From: Ardenticatenaceae bacterium
GTDB taxonomy: Bacteria; Chloroflexota; Anaerolineae; Ardenticatenales; Ardenticatenaceae
Reading direction: 5' to 3'
Length of the DNA: 64,000 nucleotides
NCBI GenBank assembly: GCA_015491235.1
Contig: WFWG01000353.1
Span: 1,342 to 65,341 of the forward strand
Shown: positions 9,339-45,672 of the stretch, one piece after another
Layout: the number at the start of each line of letters is the position of its first letter
How positions within the stretch are numbered: the stretch's first letter is position 1
Notes under the pieces: model-generated
Seen by the model: only the letters and a program-made list of their open reading frames with translations
The model's database searches: none
What the model was told of the DNA's origin: nothing
Translations under genes and position numbers: made by a program

Positions 9339-10250
9339 TTATTCCTCGTCCTTCTCTTCCGTACCGGAGAGGGCTTCACCGGCATCCTCAGCGTAGGAGT
9401 AGACTTCAATGCCCAACCGCTCGGCTACGCGACGGGCTCTGTCGTCCACCATCGGAGATATAATGATAAGTCGGTCGGCCTTCGTGTTGTGGCGCTTCTC
9501 GTAGAAGCGGGCTTTGCGTTCGAACGCGTACACTTCGCTTTTGGTTACCGAGGACTTGATTTCTCCAATAATGAGCTTGCCGTTGTGAATAATTAGGTCG
9601 AGTTCGATCTGCTCGGGATATCTGAAAACTTCGCCTGTTTTGTCCTGCTCCTCGACGTGGATAACACGAAATCCTAACTCCTCCAAAATGCCGGCCAGCG
9701 CATTTCGGAAGGCAGCCTCCGTTTGAAGCCCCCAGCGGGCACCAAGAGCTCCTATATGCTGGTCATGCCTCCGCTCTTGGGCGCGGAATGCTTCTAACAT
9801 CTTGTCGAACCGCTGCAAACTCTCCTGCCAGCGCCGATCCTGTTCTTGTCGCAAGGCTTCCAGCCGCTGAGTGTGCTCTCGCTCTAATTCTTCCAGCCGC
9901 CGCCAGTTCTCTTCCCACGCTCGCTTGCGTTCCTCTTCCAGTTTCTTCCACATCTCCTTGCGCTCCTGCTCCAGTTGCTCCCAGCGCCGCTGATTTTCCT
10001 CCCAGGCCTGCTTGCGCTCCTGCTCCAGTTGCTCCAAGCGTCGTTGATTCTCCTCCCAGCGCCGCATTTGCGCCTCTCTGTCCTGGCGCAATTCTTCGAG
10101 CAAGCGGTCGAAGCGACTTTCTGTTTCAACCCGACCGGCAGCGTATTCCGCAATCAACTCCCGCACGAACCGTTGCACCTCAACGTCCTGTTTCAAGATG
10201 TGGGGCAGTTCTTCCATGATTAACTGCTTGATCCGCTCACGCTCTGTCAT
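9339..10250 (-). CDS. coiled-coil protein with C-terminal PD-(D/E)XK-like domain (DUF3782-like)
   Basis: Start moved to MTERERIKQL (ATG 10248-10250), because the first 75 codons of the track ORF overlap glyA. The C-terminus ELDLIIHNGKLIIGEIK shows a D...E-x-K pattern. The middle is W/E/R/Q-rich heptad repeats. Confidence 0.6.
   Translation of the reverse strand: MTERERIKQLIMEELPHILKQDVEVQRFVRELIAEYAAGRVETESRFDRLLEELRQDREAQMRRWEENQRRLEQLEQERKQAWEENQRRWEQLEQERKEMWKKLEEERKRAWEENWRRLEELEREHTQRLEALRQEQDRRWQESLQRFDKMLEAFRAQERRHDQHIGALGARWGLQTEAAFRNALAGILEELGFRVIHVEEQDKTGEVFRYPEQIELDLIIHNGKLIIGEIKSSVTKSEVYAFERKARFYEKRHNTKADRLIIISPMVDDRARRVAERLGIEVYSYAEDAGEALSGTEEKDEE
9957..10064. repeat. in-frame 54-bp tandem duplication (2 units)
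   Basis: Units 9957-10010 and 10011-10064 share the first 25 nt exactly and are about 85% identical overall by eye. They encode the RRWEENQRRLEQLEQERK / QAWEENQRRWEQLEQERK units. Confidence 0.8.
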
Positions 10251-36097: not shown

Positions 36098-36616
36098 TTA
36101 TCTCTCAGTCAGCAACTGAACGAGAGCAAAGAGAATGCCAACCAGCGCAGCCATCTGCGAGACCCAAAAGACGAACGCCCACCGAATAAGAGAAACTTTG
36201 GTCTGTCCGATTTCCTTGATCAGGTCAGCGCGCACCCGCTCGATTTCCAAGCGGTTCTCTTCGATCTTTTTCGTCAAGTCGGCCTGGATTTGGCCCATCT
36301 TCTCGGTCAGGTCGGCCTGGATTTGGCCCATCTTCTCGGTCAGGTCGGCGCGCACCCGCTCGATCTCCAGGCGGTTCTCTTCGATCTTCTCCATCAACTC
36401 AGTGCGCAGCCGTTCGATTTCCAGGCGCACCCGCTCGATCTCCAGGCGCAGCGCGGCCTCCACTTCGCGCACGTCCTGCTGGCGGGCCACGTCCTCTGGG
36501 GGCGTGCGAGCGACGATGAATTCCAGCACCACGAGCCCCTCGTCCGGCCCAAAGGCCCGTTGCAGAATGCGGGCGACTTCGGCGTAGCTGGGTGTTTCCG
36601 GTGGGTTTTTCGCCAT
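36098..36616 (-). CDS. coiled-coil protein with C-terminal TM anchor (DUF1640/CCDC90-like)
   Basis: 172 aa with repeated LEIERVRxxL / DLTEKMGQIQA units, ending in IRWAFVFWVSQMAALVGILFALVQLL. It forms an operon with the C39/TPR gene. Confidence 0.6.
   Translation of the reverse strand: MAKNPPETPSYAEVARILQRAFGPDEGLVVLEFIVARTPPEDVARQQDVREVEAALRLEIERVRLEIERLRTELMEKIEENRLEIERVRADLTEKMGQIQADLTEKMGQIQADLTKKIEENRLEIERVRADLIKEIGQTKVSLIRWAFVFWVSQMAALVGILFALVQLLTER
36221..36387. repeat. nested in-frame tandem repeats (120-bp period containing a perfect 33-bp x2 repeat)
   Basis: 36278-36310 equals 36311-36343 exactly. The flanking 47-nt blocks 36221-36267 and 36341-36387 differ at 3-4 positions. Confidence 0.85.
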
Positions 36617-40214: not shown

Positions 40215-41027
40215 ATGAAGAGGTTGTGGTGGCAACTCCTGTTGCTGGTGCTTTGGGCTTTGGGGTGCGCGGGTCCTGCTCGACCGACGCCGTCGCCTGC
40301 TCCCTCCCCGACGGGGGCAGCGTTGACGACGGGACTCGCCTCGCCGGAAGCCACGGTCACGGGGGCGCCTGCCCCCACGCCCACCACCCTTGACCCCTTT
40401 GCCGAAGCGAGGGAACGCATGGTTCGAGAACAAATCGAAGCCCGCGGCGTGCGCGACCCGGCCGTGCTGGCGGCCATGCGAGCCGTGCCACGCCACAAGT
40501 TCGTCCCGGAGCGTTACCTTGACCAGGCCTACGCCGACCACCCGCTGCCCATCGGCTACGGCCAGACCATCTCCCAGCCCTACATCGTCGCCCTCATGAC
40601 CGAGGCCCTGAAGGTCAAGCCGGGCGACAAGGTGCTGGAGATCGGCACGGGCAGCGGCTACCAGGCGGCTGTGCTGGCCGAGATGGGTGTTGAGGTCTAC
40701 ACTGTGGAAATCATTCCCGAGCTGGCCCGCTCGGCTGAGGAGCGCCTGCGGGAACTGGGATACACCAACGTGCGCGTCCTCAACGCCGACGGCTACAACG
40801 GCTGGCCGGAGCACGCCCCCTACGACGCCATCATCGTTACAGCCGCCCCTGACCACCTGCCCCAGCCGCTGGTGGAGCAACTCAAGCCGGGCGGACGACT
40901 GGTCATCCCCATCGGACCGCCGGGCAGTGTTCAGACCCTGTGGCTCTTCGTGAAGCGGGAAGACGGCGAACTGGACGCCTTCAACATGGGTGCCGTGCGC
41001 TTCGTCCCATTGGTGCGCGAACGATGA
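40215..41027 (+). CDS. pcm: protein-L-isoaspartate O-methyltransferase with lipoprotein-type signal
   Basis: LLVLWALGC lipobox, then [36 protein letters not shown] and GGRLVIPIG. Confidence 0.9.
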
Positions 41028-42502
41028 GGAGCAGCGACATGATTGGCATTGTGGACTTTGGCCTTTACATCCCGTATCACCGCCTGCCCCGCGAGGCCAT
41101 CGGTGAAGCCTGGCGGATGGAGCAAGCCAAGGAGTTGCTCATCGGCGAGCGGGCTGTGGCCGGCTTCGACGAGGACACCGTCACGATGGCCGTCGAAGCC
41201 GTGCTCGAGGCCCTAGGACCGCGCCAGGAGGCGGGCGTGGACGCCCTCTTCTTCGCCTCCACCACGCCTCCCTTTGGCGAGAAGAGCAGCGCGGCCGTGG
41301 TGGCGGCGGCCTGCGACCTTCCGGTCCACCGCAGTGCCGACGTGACCGGCACGCTGCGCGCCGGAACGACCGCCTTGGGCCTGGCCTTGGACGCCGTGCG
41401 GGCGGGCTCAGCCCGGCGCGCGGTGGTGGCCGCGGCCGACATGCGCCCCTTCGAGCCGGGCACGCTTCAGGAGGCTGTCTCCGGCGACGGGGCGGCTGCC
41501 CTGGTTATAGGAGAAGGGGACGACGTGGTGGCCGTCATCGAGGGGGAAGTCCACCTGAGCGACCCCACGGTTGACGTGTGGCGCCACGCCGAGCGCCGCT
41601 ACCTTTCCACTGACGACGAGTCATTCGCCAACCAGGTGGGGTACTTCGCCCTGGTGAACAAAGCCGTGGACGAGTTGCTTCGCCAGGCGGGCGTGGAGGC
41701 CGAATCGGTGGCAGGTGTGGCCCTTTACGCGCCTGACGGCCGGGCCTACATGCGCCTGGCCCGGAAGTCCCCGTTGGGCCCGGCCCTGGCGCGGGCAGGC
41801 CTGATGGGGCCGGCACCCCGCCTGCTCATGGCGGCCGGCAACCTGGGCGCGGCCTTTCCGCTGGCCCAACTGGCGCTGCTTCTGGAAACAGCCCAGCCGG
41901 ACGATCTTCTGGTGCTGGTGGGCTACGGCGACGGCGCCGACGCCTACCTGCTGCGCGTGACGCCGGCCACGGCGAAACGACCACCCCGCCGGCCGGCCGC
42001 TTTCTGGCTGGAAACAAAGGGGCCAATTCCCTACACCCAGGCCCTCTTCTTCCGCCAGCACATTCGGGACAAGCCCCTCTTTCCGCCGGGGGCGGAACCG
42101 TGGACCTCCCTCCCCCTGCTCTACCGCGAGCGGGGCGAGTTATTGGCCCTGCGAGCACAGCGGTGCACGTCGTGCGGGGCCGTCTGGTGGCCCCATCGCC
42201 CCAACTGCTACGAGTGCGGCGCCCAGGAGGGATTCGAGTTCATGCGACTGGGACGGCGGGGCACGGTGGCCACCTTCGAGGTGGAGTGGGCCATTCCGCA
42301 CCCGGCCCCCCCTGTGGGCATGGTCACCGTGGACACGCCCGAGGGCACCCGCATCACCACCCAGACCACCGACGGCGACCCCCGCGTGCTTGCCGTGGGC
42401 CAGGAGGTCGAGCTGGCGTTCCGCCTCTTCCACACGGCCAAAGCGCTGCCCCACTACTCCTGGAAAGTGCGCGTGCGCGGTGAAGGGAGAAAGGAAACTT
42501 GA
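41024..42502 (+). CDS. HMG-CoA-synthase-like (thiolase-fold) domain fused to a DUF35 zinc-ribbon/OB domain
   Basis: ATG 41024 overlaps the pcm stop (ATGA). The N-terminal region [15 protein letters not shown]...[10 protein letters not shown] is HMGCS-like. The C-terminal region [19 protein letters not shown]...GTVATFEV is DUF35. The expected nucleophile position reads [11 protein letters not shown], with Leu where HMGCS has Cys. Confidence 0.7.
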
Positions 42503-42561
42503 CCAACGCCTGGGGTTAGGGTATAAGTACAAGCGTGCTTTTCCCAAAAGCCTTTATCGTC

Positions 42562-42607
42562 GGCCACCTTTGGTCGGCGTTGAGGGCCTGCGCCGGCAGG
42601 GGATAGT
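42562..42607. repeat. 46-bp perfect direct repeat, copy 1
   Basis: GGCCACCTTTGGTCGGCGTTGAGGGCCTGCGCCGGCAGGGGATAGT, identical to 43582-43627 and exactly 1020 bp away. Confidence 0.95.
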
Positions 42608-42786
42608 AACAGGAGTTACGCGGTTCCTTTGGGCAAAAGGTTTTGCCAGCAGGGGCGCAGCGTCGCTGCTCCTTTACTCCGGAGGTGCAGGGGGTTCCAC
42701 CCCCTGCCGGGAGACGTGGGGGGCCCCCAGCCTCCTTTTCTCCCCCAAATGCGGCCCTGCTCCGCCACCGCGTACGTCCTGACAGT
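42605..42786. mobile_element. MITE-like structured repeat, copy B
   Basis: AGT-AACAGGAGTTACGCGGTT...CCGCGTACGTCCTGAC-AGT. Removing it restores GGGGATAGTGAAAGGGGG, exactly as in the downstream duplicate (43619-43636). It contains the hairpin GCAGGGGGT-tcc-ACCCCCTGC. Confidence 0.6.
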
Positions 42787-42801
42787 GAAAGGGGGAAGAC
42801 C

Positions 42802-43065
42802 ATGGGCGGAATACTCGTGGAAATTCCTGAAGACCTAGCCAAAGAGTTCAAAGGACATGAAGGGCACCTGCGCGAGATACTGCTTCTGGGTCTTCGGCAG
42901 TTGAAAATCCAGGAGGCGCTGTGGCTTTACCGAGAGGGCGTGGTTTCCCTGGGTAGAGCTGCGGCGATGGCAGGATTGCCTATTCGGGAAATGGTTCGGC
43001 AAGCAATCGCGTGGGGAATAAAGCCCCAATGGTCTGAGGAGATGGTCGAGGAAGAACTGGCATGA
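42802..43065 (+). CDS. UPF0175-family antitoxin candidate
   Basis: True start is ATG 42802 (MGGILVEIPEDLAKEF...). The upstream part of track ORF 42643 is repeat DNA. It has an HTH-like region VSLGRAAAMAGLPIREMV. The stop overlaps the toxin start. Confidence 0.7.
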   Translation: MGGILVEIPEDLAKEFKGHEGHLREILLLGLRQLKIQEALWLYREGVVSLGRAAAMAGLPIREMVRQAIAWGIKPQWSEEMVEEELA

Positions 43066-43577
43066 GAGCAGTGACGAACGCTGGTCCCTTAATTGCTCTC
43101 GGAAAGTTGGGATTCGTTTTTCTCCTCTCAAAATTGTACGACCAAGTTCTCGTTCCGTCTGCTGTGTACAACGAAGTTGTCGTTCGGGGAATGGAATCAG
43201 GAAGTCCCGATGCCTACATCGTCGAACGATCCGTGACGCGCGGTGAATTGATCCTTCAAGATGTCTCTCAAGCCACATTCCCGGAAAAGCTACAAGCTTC
43301 GCCCTTGGGTGATGGGGAAAAGCAAACGATTTATTTGGCGTTGGTCGAGGCTGTTGAATGGGTGCTCATAGACGACCTGCTAGCCAGGAAAACCGCGCAG
43401 GAATTTGGCCTCAAGGTGAAGGGAACGTTAGGAATTCTCGTGGAAGCCTACCGTCAACAAGTCATAACACTTGAGGAATTGGAGTACACTTTTCGCACTA
43501 TCGTGGAACGGGAAGACATTTGGATAGCAGAACCGTTGGTGCGCCGTATATGGAAAGCAGTGTTGCATAAAGGGTAA
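43062..43577 (+). CDS. DUF3368-type PIN-like nuclease toxin candidate
   Basis: 171 aa: VTNAGPLIALGKLG...GDGEKQTIYLA...LIDDLLARKTAQEFGLKVKGTLGIL, the usual partner of UPF0175. Confidence 0.75.
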   Translation: MRAVTNAGPLIALGKLGFVFLLSKLYDQVLVPSAVYNEVVVRGMESGSPDAYIVERSVTRGELILQDVSQATFPEKLQASPLGDGEKQTIYLALVEAVEWVLIDDLLARKTAQEFGLKVKGTLGILVEAYRQQVITLEELEYTFRTIVEREDIWIAEPLVRRIWKAVLHKG

Positions 43578-43581
43578 GATG

Positions 43582-43627
43582 GGCCACCTTTGGTCGGCGT
43601 TGAGGGCCTGCGCCGGCAGGGGATAGT
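43582..43627. repeat. 46-bp perfect direct repeat, copy 2
   Basis: Identical to 42562-42607. It is followed by GAAAGGGGG and the thiolase start. Confidence 0.95.
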
Positions 43628-43642
43628 GAAAGGGGGCGTCCA

Positions 43643-44839
43643 ATGGGCACAGAGGCCTTGCGGGACAAAGTCGCGATTATCGGCATGGGGTGCATGCGCT
43701 TCGGCGCGTTGCAGGACAAGAGTTTCGCCGAGCAGGGGCTGGAGGCCGTCAACGAGGCCCTGGCCGACGCCGGAATTGAGAAGGAGCGCATCGAGGCCGC
43801 CTGGCTGGGCACCTTCGACCCCACGGTGGGGGGCAGCTTTCCCGGCTATGCGGGTGACTTCGTGGCCGACATCCTGGGGATGCCTGGCCTGCCGGTGACC
43901 CGCGTGACCAACTACTGCGCCACTGGCATGGACGCCCTGCGCAACGCGGCCATCGCCGTGGCCGCCGGCCTCTACGACGTGGTGTTGGTGCTGGGCAACG
44001 AGAAGATGCGCGACGTGCCCTCGCGGGACAGCCTCATTCGCCAGGTCATGGTGACCGGCCACCCCATCGTGCAGAAGGGGTTGACGGCGCCCGGCCTCTT
44101 CGCCCTCATGGCCCGCCGCCACATGGAGGAGTACGGCACCACCCGCGAGGACCTGGCGCTGGTGGCCGTCAAGAACCACTACAACGGCAACCGCCACCCC
44201 AAGGCCATGTTCCACAAAGAAATCACCGTGGAGGACGTGCTTTCCGCGCCGATGATTAGCGAACCCCTGGGCCTCTACGACTGCACGCCCACCAGCGACG
44301 GTGCCGCGGCCGCCATCCTGTGCCGGGCCGACCTGGCCCCCCAGTTGACCGACGAGTACGTACTCATCGAGGCCATCGAACTGGCCACGGTGAGCGGGGG
44401 ACGGTACGGCCGCCGCCAGGAATCCTTAATTGGCTTCGAGTCCACCCAAATTGCCGCCCGGAGAGCTTATGCGGCTGCCGGCATCACCGACCCGGTGAGC
44501 GCCATAGACGTGGCTGAAGTCCACGACTGTTTCACCATTACCGAAATTCTGAACTACGAGGACCTGGGATTCGTCCCGAAAGGAGAGGGGGCGACCTTTA
44601 TCCGGGAGGGGCGCTCTTCCCTGGAGGGCGATTTGCCCGTCAACCCCAGCGGTGGGCTCAAGTGCTTCGGCCACCCCATTGGGGCCAGCGGCGTCCGCAT
44701 GACGTACATCATCTACGAACAACTTCTTGGGCGTGCCGGCCTCACGCAAGTGTCGGTTGAACGCAACGGGCGCGGCCTGGTCCACAACCTGGGCGGGCCC
44801 GGGTCAGTGTGCGTCGTGGGGTTATACCACTTGCCGTAA
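43643..44839 (+). CDS. thiolase-domain protein (SCP-x / archaeal acetoacetyl-CoA thiolase type)
   Basis: 398 aa: VAIIGMGCMRFG, catalytic Cys in VTNYCATGMDAL, then HDCF and GHPIGASG near the C-terminus. Confidence 0.85.
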   Translation: MGTEALRDKVAIIGMGCMRFGALQDKSFAEQGLEAVNEALADAGIEKERIEAAWLGTFDPTVGGSFPGYAGDFVADILGMPGLPVTRVTNYCATGMDALRNAAIAVAAGLYDVVLVLGNEKMRDVPSRDSLIRQVMVTGHPIVQKGLTAPGLFALMARRHMEEYGTTREDLALVAVKNHYNGNRHPKAMFHKEITVEDVLSAPMISEPLGLYDCTPTSDGAAAAILCRADLAPQLTDEYVLIEAIELATVSGGRYGRRQESLIGFESTQIAARRAYAAAGITDPVSAIDVAEVHDCFTITEILNYEDLGFVPKGEGATFIREGRSSLEGDLPVNPSGGLKCFGHPIGASGVRMTYIIYEQLLGRAGLTQVSVERNGRGLVHNLGGPGSVCVVGLYHLP

Positions 44840-44883
44840 CCGGCAACGAAACGGATGACGAGAGCCTTACCGAAGGTCGTGTG

Positions 44884-45672
44884 ATGTCCAACTCAAATGC
44901 CGAGCATCCCACAGTAGCCCTCGAAGTAGCGGCAGCCAGCGACGTCGGTTTGGTGCGCTCGTCCAACCAGGATGTGGCGCTGGCGTATCTGTCGCCGGAG
45001 ATTCCTTCGCGGGCCTTGCTGCTCGTGGCTGACGGCATGGGCGGACACCTCGCCGGCCATTTGGCCAGTCAGATTGCGGCCCAAACGCTCTTCGCGTATT
45101 TTCAATCCTTCCTCGACGGGGTAACCCGCGGAGAAGAAGACCTCACCCTCTCAGAGCAACTCGAACAGGCCATCAAGGCGGCTAACAGGGCCATACGCCA
45201 ATACGCTTGCGAGCACCCGGAGGAGGCCGGTGACATGGGCAGCACCCTCACGTGTGCCCTGATTGACGGAAACGTGGCCATTATCGCCAACGTGGGCGAC
45301 AGCCGGGCATATCACTTCTCCCAAGGAACGTTGCACCAGGTGTCGCAGGACCACTCGCTGGTTGCCGAACTCATTCGCGAGGGCGAACTGCCAGCCGAGG
45401 CACTGCTCTTCCATCCCCAGCGAAATGTCATCACCAGAGCTCTGGGTGTGGAAGAGGATGTTCAGCCTGACATCTGGGTGCGGCCCATTTCTTCTGGCGA
45501 TTGGCTTTTGTTGTGCAGCGATGGACTGTGGGAAATGGTGCCCGAATCCCTTATGACCCACGTCCTGACTACGTCCTTGGAGGCTGGCTTGGCTGTTGGG
45601 CGGTTGCTCCAAGCGGCCAACGAGCGAGGCGGGGTTGACAACATCGGCGTGGCTGTGGCCCGTGTCTGGTAA
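44884..45672 (+). CDS. PP2C-family Ser/Thr protein phosphatase
   Basis: AAASDVGLVRSSNQD, VADGMGGHLAG, ANVGDSRAY, LCSDGLW and GGVDNIGV motifs. Confidence 0.85.
   Translation: MSNSNAEHPTVALEVAAASDVGLVRSSNQDVALAYLSPEIPSRALLLVADGMGGHLAGHLASQIAAQTLFAYFQSFLDGVTRGEEDLTLSEQLEQAIKAANRAIRQYACEHPEEAGDMGSTLTCALIDGNVAIIANVGDSRAYHFSQGTLHQVSQDHSLVAELIREGELPAEALLFHPQRNVITRALGVEEDVQPDIWVRPISSGDWLLLCSDGLWEMVPESLMTHVLTTSLEAGLAVGRLLQAANERGGVDNIGVAVARVW

Follow-up and report, generated by a model that had tools for sequence, protein, structure and literature searches.

How does a gene pair that carries no recombinase gene come to stand between two metabolic genes, with one and the same piece of host DNA on either side? 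The question is raised by a 64,000-nucleotide stretch of the Ardenticatenaceae bacterium assembly GCA_015491235.1 (contig WFWG01000353.1, positions 1,342 to 65,341 of the forward strand; Chloroflexota), called the window in what follows and numbered from its first letter, in which a type II toxin–antitoxin (TA) pair, made up of a UPF0175-family antitoxin gene and a DUF3368 PIN-like toxin gene, separates a gene for an HMG-CoA-synthase-like (HMGCS-like) protein from a thiolase gene. Comparison with strains of the same species that lack the pair (the empty-site strains, contigs L044 and L045) confirms that the TA insertion between these two metabolic genes of a hot-vent Chloroflexota bacterium is real. 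It is probable that 786 bp of foreign TA DNA were inserted here with duplication of 55 bp of the host leader, by way of host repair or replication, and that the product was later kept. [quoted passage not shown]

The direct repeats and their exact extent

42562..42607, + strand: left copy of the target duplication, first 46 bp; exact match to 43582-43627, single copy in the empty-site strains
42608..42783, + strand: element of 176 bp resembling a miniature inverted-repeat transposable element (MITE), with imperfect terminal inverted repeats (TIRs), lying in the left copy; flanked by AGT (42605-42607 and 42784-42786)
42787..42795, + strand: left copy of the target duplication, last 9 bp (GAAAGGGGG); continues the 46-mer as in the right copy and the empty site
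42796..43581, + strand: inserted cargo of 786 bp (6 nt, antitoxin gene, toxin gene, 4 nt); absent from L044 and L045
43582..43636, + strand: right copy of the 55-bp duplication, the intact thiolase 5' leader with its Shine-Dalgarno (SD) sequence; matches the empty site save for one C/T polymorphism

The window contains the 46-mer GGCCACCTTTGGTCGGCGTTGAGGGCCTGCGCCGGCAGGGGATAGT (GGCCACC...GGGGATAGT) exactly twice, at 42562-42607 and, without a mismatch, at 43582-43627, as the first-pass annotation had reported. No third copy was found in the 64-kb window even at up to 3 mismatches, and dinucleotide shuffles matched the 46-mer in 0 of 100 cases, which places the exact repeat far above chance. A reading of the sequence likewise bears out the earlier statements that the continuation of the right copy, AGTGAAAGGGGG, recurs at 42784-42795, and that ATGGGC begins 6 nt past both copies, at 42802 as the start of the antitoxin gene and at 43643 as that of the thiolase gene. 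Once the MITE-like element is taken out, the two copies form a perfect direct repeat of 55 bp, the right one at 43582-43636. The duplication had been put at 58-64 bp, a figure that has to be corrected: the 6-nt spacers ahead of ATGGGC read aagacc and cgtcca and are mismatched at 5 of 6 positions, and therefore the strict duplication amounts to 55 bp. The idea of a duplicated intergenic region thus stands for the leader with its SD, and falls short of proof for the first two codons. A duplication extended through ATGGGC was considered and set aside as unproven, in view of the mismatched spacer and of the antitoxin N-termini, which vary among homologs (these begin MEK, MER or MAQ); ATGGGC is native to the thiolase, being present also in the relative L010.

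In about 328 kb (the window plus the loci compared), only 4 distinct places carry an exact direct repeat that is 25 bp or longer and spaced by 300-3000 bp; 2 of these are TA-flanking repeats (the window and the locus L048/L049 described below) and 2 are internal duplications within genes. Imperfect tandem-like repeats of 33-77 nt are also seen in coding regions of the window, at 36204-36454 and 9942-10085 (families D1, D8, D10 and D17), and are probably repeated protein motifs.

As to the nature of the 55-mer, it contains no tRNA or tmRNA, the sole tRNA of the window being tRNA-SeC at 23925-24020, and it folds no better than its shuffles on either strand (z -0.44 and -0.61), with no significant hairpin. 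No Rfam family matches it, and the Rfam search gave nothing but a sub-threshold chance match inside the MITE. A metagenome collection scanned with the 21-nt core of the repeat returned the same locus only (L042), together with chance matches such as L037, and a genome collection that does not include the source species returned chance matches in actinomycetes only. These properties bear on the proposal that the TA pair is an integron gene cassette and the 55-mer its attC site. The cargo is indeed promoterless and tightly trimmed around its open reading frames (ORFs), and chromosomal integrons commonly hold TA pairs as cassettes (PMC2654758). The 55-mer, on the other hand, has no attC-like hairpin on either strand, with folding energies no better than shuffles, and no paired R''/R' core sites; its GTTGAGG misfits GTTRRRY, and no GTTRRRY/RYYYAAC pair can be read. 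Furthermore, the neighbors are conserved housekeeping genes rather than a cassette array, and the repeat is a native host leader that is present in the empty-site strains, which leaves the cassette proposal with a negligible probability.

Empty sites and independent assemblies

An exact lookup of the thiolase of the window gave no match, and the empty-site strains were reached via its 90% cluster, whose member P0122 is found on L044 (77.5 kb) and L045. Both contigs are conspecific with the window, their flanks being 98.8-99.0% identical to it on both sides. In both, the 120-nt spacer consists of ...cctttatcgtc, one 55-mer and cgtcca ahead of the thiolase ATGGGC, such that the 55-mer is directly followed by cgtccaATGGGC and the thiolase. 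Occupied and empty alleles are collinear over about 5 kb on each side and differ only by the 1020-bp block. A relative with a single 46-mer running directly into GAAAGGGGG and the thiolase ATG had been predicted and is seen in both strains, which carry one copy of the 46-mer and not the two that a generic repeat would have left in TA-free relatives. The early remark on the lack of a recombinase gene is likewise sustained, with none in the polymorphic segment or in the collinear flanks of about 5 kb. In more distant relatives, whose thiolases are 88-91% identical, the HMGCS-like and thiolase genes are immediate neighbors: no TA pair comes between them, and the spacers, of 99, 28 and 119 nt, are too diverged to reveal the 55-mer. 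Thiolase orthologs directly follow the HMGCS-like gene in L010, L011, L013 and L014.

A misassembly, named early on as a possible source of the structure, or a generic dispersed repeat with a TA pair between its copies by chance, would leave traces in the assemblies, and several contigs (L001-L004) do end at the repeat or the MITE or close to them, and L005 is chimeric inside the MITE. This is the usual effect of repeats on short-read assemblies. At least 9 other contigs, drawn from NCBI metagenome-assembled genomes, ENA, Logan and JGI, encode an identical toxin protein, in every case upstream of the same thiolase, and the occupied structure agrees in at least 7 independent assemblies, two of which (L006 and L042) span both junctions. 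In addition, the two copies are distinguished by single-nucleotide polymorphisms (SNPs): the left copy reads GCGCCGG in L001 and GCGCTGG in L042, and the right copy reads GCGTCGG in L001, L003 and L042. It follows that the copies are physically separate and evolve independently, and are no product of misassembly. As the empty allele also has just one copy of the repeat, and the window and the metagenome scan yielded none at any other locus, an artefact or a chance arrangement is hardly credible.

The variation of the 55-mer among strains consists entirely of C-to-T changes at both cytosines of a CCGG motif (window 42593-42594 and 43613-43614; L001, L003, L042 and L044), which sits in the loop of a small CCTGC/GCAGG hairpin. 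This motif may be a hot spot of 5-methylcytosine deamination, with which recurrent changes would be compatible.

The inserted toxin–antitoxin pair

42802..43065, + strand: UPF0175-family antitoxin gene, 87 aa; Pfam PF03683, 31.7 bits against a cutoff of 27.9
43062..43577, + strand: DUF3368 (COG2405) PIN-like toxin gene, 171 aa; Pfam PF11848, 21.4 bits, below the cutoff of 27.3

The only ORFs of the cargo are the two TA genes, and its composition sets it apart from its surroundings: GC is 0.51 and GC at third codon positions (GC3) 0.52-0.56, versus 0.66-0.70 and 0.85-0.86 in the flanking genes, with an abrupt shift at the repeat borders. The genes are co-directional with the antitoxin first, and the antitoxin stop overlaps the toxin start by 4 nt (ATGA). 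Together with the Pfam matches, this overlap upholds the earlier description of a UPF0175 antitoxin translationally coupled to a DUF3368 PIN-like toxin. COG2405/DUF3368 is a VapC-like PIN group of predicted toxins, and UPF0175 occurs exclusively beside it (PMC5499597). Among 212 toxin homologs at expectation values (E) of 1e-10 or below, those with E down to 1e-60 carry PF11848. The best match other than the toxin itself is 60% identical, the antitoxin is 48-61% identical to the antitoxins that partner homologous toxins, and the antitoxin–toxin architecture is the same at six homologous loci. Every residue that is invariant in the family is retained in the toxin, and the four toxin SNPs among L001-L009 are all synonymous; the toxin gene is therefore under purifying selection. 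Intact ORFs and synonymous-only toxin SNPs indirectly support functional TA genes, and with them the predicted growth inhibition by the toxin and its predicted neutralization by the antitoxin.

A donor of the pair was sought without success: the nearest toxin is the 60% identical one, viral contigs hold no relatives, and plasmids gave matches of 29-36% only. The search bears on the idea that the donor already carried the 55-bp leader beside the TA genes, and that a single Campbell-type crossover or homology-facilitated illegitimate recombination brought the pair in. In its favor, 55 bp suffice for RecA-dependent recombination, and a donor joined beforehand would explain why the antitoxin lies at a functional distance from the SD borne by the repeat; the mosaic SNPs described below also suggest that recombination between strains is frequent. 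Such a scheme needs an earlier event in which leader and TA pair were joined, however, and so shifts the question back. Moreover, no such donor appeared in searches of genomes, metagenomes, viruses, plasmids and homologs, and the composition of the cargo changes abruptly at the repeat borders. A donor of this kind appears improbable.

A second case in the same family

Flanking repeats were looked for in six independent contexts of homologous toxins (44-60% identical): 500 nt upstream of the antitoxin were aligned with 500 nt downstream of the toxin, and shuffled sequences served as controls. The window reached a score of 46 (null maximum 14), and the locus L048/L049 a score of 86 (null maximum 13). 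At the latter (L049:2608-3668 and L048:1-1035), a 105-bp, 94%-identical direct repeat flanks a homologous UPF0175/DUF3368 pair. The start of the duplication coincides with the ATG of a small host ORF, a host sequence different from that of the window, and the duplication leaves a truncated copy of 41 codons upstream of the TA pair and an intact one of 50 codons 2 nt past the toxin stop. Two events with different repeat sequence and length therefore fit target duplication rather than a fixed attachment site.

The L048/L049 contig is unrelated to the window and probably belongs to Anaerolineae, with the locus lying between a PARIS-like ATPase/DUF4435 pair and an NTase/HEPN gene. No close empty site at the DNA level exists for L049 in the databases, where the nearest homolog of a neighboring gene is 61% identical, which permits a comparison of synteny only. 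In the syntenic relative (L062-L066), the order comprises an AAA_15/21 ATPase, a DUF4435-type gene, NTase/HEPN, SLFN-AlbA_2 and GAF-HisKA; the TA pair is absent between the DUF4435-type and NTase/HEPN genes, and no counterpart of the duplicated small ORF was found. Another family member (L051:2238-3029, also L052-L055) lies 3 nt upstream of an intein-containing gyrA gene, and no flanking duplication was detected there at L051; two contigs of this set end about 165 nt past the toxin, hinting at strain variation or a repeat.

Host genes, expression signals and the MITE-like element

41039..42502, + strand: gene for an HMG-CoA-synthase-like protein fused to a DUF35-type zinc-ribbon/OB domain; Pfam zf-ChsH2 and OB_ChsH2_C
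42499..42527, + strand: promoter-like motif TTGACC-17 nt-TATAAG over the stop codon of the HMGCS-like gene; read from the sequence
43643..44839, + strand: thiolase (acetyl-CoA acetyltransferase-like) gene; Pfam Thiolase_N, Thiolase_C and Thiolase_C_1
24984..25137, + strand: second MITE-like copy, 154 bp, with AGT on both sides; identified by similarity to 42608-42783

For the HMGCS-like gene, the start called in relatives gives 487 aa (ortholog in L044), the longest ORF starting at 40940, and the NCBIfam models of HMG-CoA synthase match the protein below their cutoffs. The order of an HMGCS-like/DUF35 fusion followed by a thiolase resembles the archaeal thiolase/HMGCS/DUF35 trio, with two of the parts in one polypeptide.

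The motif TTGACC-17-TATAAG was omitted by a strict promoter scan, the -10 box ending in G, and L010 carries TTGGCT-17-TATAGT at the equivalent place. It is probably the promoter of the thiolase gene, and now of a TA–thiolase unit. The 55-mer closes with a strong SD, the 8-nt AAAGGGGG, in which 8 positions can pair with the 3' end usual for 16S rRNA; it lies 6 nt ahead of each ATG. The cargo has no promoter or SD belonging to itself; therefore the antitoxin must use the SD of the left copy, and it is plausible that the TA pair is expressed by way of host signals. As a consequence of the insertions, the thiolase gene has been moved away from the putative promoter by 841 bp, plus 179 bp contributed by the MITE.

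The empty-site strains L044 and L045 lack the MITE and show a single AGT at its position, so that the element is a later insertion with a 3-bp duplication. The earlier proposal that a MITE subsequently hit the upstream repeat copy is thereby substantiated, the element spanning 42608-42783. Short and non-coding, with TIRs, a short target duplication and several copies, and missing from the empty site, it has the features by which a MITE is recognized. The TIRs of the family read G/A-x-CAGGA..TACGCGG, and length variants of 154 and 176-180 bp are seen. L005:1-181 joins a different genomic context inside the element, implying further copies in the genome, and the selenocysteine tRNA gene at 23925-24020 lies about 1 kb upstream of the other copy at 24984-25137. 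Within the element, a GC-rich hairpin is followed by a T-rich run (42717-42735), which might interfere with transcription toward the TA and thiolase genes.

Age and polarity of the alleles

The species today holds both occupied and empty alleles. Over about 1.36 kb of the left flank, the window and L042, both occupied, differ at 26 sites, the window and the empty L044 at 18, and L042 and L044 at 28; occupied strains thus differ among themselves as much as they do from empty strains. Within the cargo, 9 of 786 sites distinguish the window from L042 (about 1%). From this divergence of cargo and flank among occupied strains, it follows that the insertion is old and pre-dates much of the present diversity of the species. 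SNPs of the right flank form a mosaic among the strains (window 43600-45200 versus L001-L006, L044 and L045), which points either to a population that often undergoes homologous recombination or to assemblies that are a consensus of mixed strains. L005, for instance, shares alleles of the empty-site strains at 44368, 44398 and 45128.

Recombination between the 46-bp stretches of the repeats may bring about a precise loss of the cassette, and would yield exactly the empty-site sequence. The empty alleles therefore need not all be ancestral. Precise excision as a circle would be recognizable by a junction of the form ..TAAGATG-55-mer-AAGACCATG...

Proposed origin of the insertion

The comparisons above establish the insertion and its exact borders, the 55-bp duplication, the empty site, the foreign composition of the cargo, purifying selection on the toxin and a cargo free of recombinase genes. 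In the course of events that best accounts for the locus, a 786-bp foreign segment entered the HMGCS-like/thiolase spacer immediately past the SD of the thiolase, and the same event copied the 55 bp of host leader preceding the insertion point. The left copy would supply a ribosome-binding site to the promoterless, SD-less antitoxin gene, the right copy would restore the thiolase leader with its SD, so that the host gene survives, and the 176-bp MITE landed in the left copy later. The insertion would most likely have been an event of host repair or replication rather than the work of an enzyme encoded by the element: a linear foreign fragment would be joined to two target points lying 55 bp apart on the two strands, either by a staggered break with fill-in or by a template switch that re-enters 55 bp upstream. 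The rare product would have been kept because thiolase expression was preserved, the antitoxin had gained an SD, and an addiction module resists loss. Joining by the host is favored because the repeat length varies, recombinase and att structure are lacking, and the composition changes abruptly at the borders. The left junction falls exactly at the end of the SD, and microhomology between donor and host SD may have set both the join and the functional spacing.

Several points weigh against this account. The mechanism is a matter of inference, and no donor was found that would reveal the original flanks of the cargo or microhomology at the junctions. The apparent uniqueness of the 55-mer rests on the 64-kb window and the metagenome scan. 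Long flanking repeats occur in only 2 of the 6 contexts, the other 4 staying at background. The mosaic SNPs prevent rooting, and empty alleles that are ancestral or that arose by precise loss fit equally. The terminator-like hairpin of the MITE (42717-42735) lies between the putative promoter and the antitoxin gene. Finally, in L001 and L042 the polymorphic site carries C in the left copy and T in the right, with T in the empty site, a pattern that fits hybrid att sites if the crossover took place left of the SNP.

Such hybrid sites would be expected if the TA pair were an element akin to cis-mobilizable or integrative mobilizable elements (CIMEs/IMEs), moved in trans by a tyrosine or serine integrase, the 55-mer being the segment of identity between attP and attB and its copies attL and attR. 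A length of 40-60 bp is typical for the direct repeats that form integrase identity segments (PMC2853133), and the empty sites are precise. The C/T differences, on the other hand, are C-to-T changes in CCGG and can be recurrent mutations. The non-coding part of the cargo amounts to only 6 + 4 nt, which leaves no room for attP arms, and neither the insert nor the DNA within about 5 kb of it encodes an integrase. A site-specific element would be expected to bring a recombinase gene or to sit in a tRNA or tmRNA target, and neither is found in the cargo, its flanks or the repeat. The 55-mer has no notable inverted repeats and, in the window and the metagenome scan, was found at this locus only, and the repeat of the second family member differs in length and sequence and lies in a coding region. 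Movement by an integrase accordingly appears very improbable here.

Returning to joining by host repair or replication, it could be asked whether insertion with long target duplication is a general route for addiction modules that is independent of restriction breaks and recurs among UPF0175/DUF3368 pairs (2 of 6 contexts). Its cause would then be sought in repair or replication junctions fixed by post-segregational killing, or in nicking of DNA by the PIN-like toxin or a partner. Such a generalization is tentative and rather doubtful.

Comparison with known systems

Insertion with long target duplication was reportedly discovered by Nobusato, Uchiyama, Ohashi and Kobayashi (Gene 259:99, 2000) in a comparison of two Helicobacter pylori genomes. 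A systematic survey was provided by Furuta, Abe and Kobayashi in 2010 (PMC2853133), according to which the class is marked by repeats above 30 bp that are variable in length and unique in the genome, by an empty site in a sibling genome and by the lack of other mobile genes. The insert's GC content often deviates, the repeats often span translation starts, and insertion into operon-like structures is seen (PMC2853133). Published repeats extend from 45-47 bp up to about 400 bp; the published cargo comprises RM systems of Types I-IV, including solitary mcrA, and the mechanism has been tied to double-strand breakage by restriction enzymes (PMC2853133). The mode of insertion has been recognized for RM systems "and other DNAs" (PMC3457768).

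The screen of Furuta and co-workers called for an insert present in one and absent from another of two close genomes, with an empty site that aligns to both flanks and has a single repeat copy, a duplication above 30 bp, and an insert below 20 kb without other mobility genes such as integrase, transposase or phage genes. At the locus described here, the empty site holds a single 55-mer, the duplication measures 55 bp (105 bp in L049), and the 786-bp insert contains only the two TA ORFs. The screen further called for RM genes as cargo, a matter of the screen and not of the junction structure, and the cargo here is a UPF0175/DUF3368 pair. The structure thus appears to fit insertion with long target duplication and is not a new kind of event. 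From the length of the duplication, the first-pass annotation had pointed to an unusual capture or integration mechanism, whose novelty is lessened by the fact that the class is already documented (PMC2853133). What is new is the type II TA pair as cargo and Chloroflexota as the phylum, no report of the class with a classical type II TA cargo having been found in the open literature.

With the published class, the locus shares the lack of a transposase or integrase, a target repeat above 30 bp, the empty site in siblings, the deviating GC, a repeat spanning the translation-start region, an intact target gene, the location in an operon-like pair and repeat lengths that vary (55 and 105 bp). What sets it apart is a cargo made up of a type II TA pair whose toxin is PIN-like (RNase-type), and a Chloroflexota host; furthermore, the cargo of the window has no promoter or SD of its own and uses the duplicated SD of the host. 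A cargo of the PIN type suggests that the process needs no restriction enzyme and weakens the explanation by restriction breaks. The conspecific empty site and the second event with a different repeat link two classes of addiction module by their mode of genome invasion. The locus also illustrates how a promoterless TA pair can settle in a core metabolic operon without harm to the operon, in that, through the duplication, the invader acquires one ribosome-binding site and the host gene gets one back, and the repeats permit precise loss. Co-existing occupied and empty alleles offer a natural system in which this mode of insertion can be studied.

As regards TA systems, the pair resembles the COG2405/UPF0175 (COG2886) modules described by Makarova et al. 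2009 (PMC2701414) and Matelska et al. 2017 (PMC5499597) in having the antitoxin first, an 87-aa UPF0175 protein, a 4-nt overlap and the domains of the family. Typical TA modules carry an autoregulated promoter of their own, whereas in this copy just 6 nt lie upstream of the antitoxin start.

With integrase islets, CIMEs/IMEs and integron cassettes, the locus has in common a small cargo, direct repeats, precise empty sites and a possible precise excision; unlike these, it has no recombinase, tRNA target, attC-like structure or room for att arms, and its repeat is a native leader. Transposons, in turn, also duplicate their target on both sides of the insert, the target duplications of Mycoplasma IS1630 measuring 19-26 bp (cited in PMC2853133). 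The 55 and 105 bp reported here are far beyond known transposase staggers, and the cargo is without TIRs or a transposase. By contrast, the MITE that resides in the left copy displays the ordinary pattern of a transposon, with its 3-bp duplication AGT.

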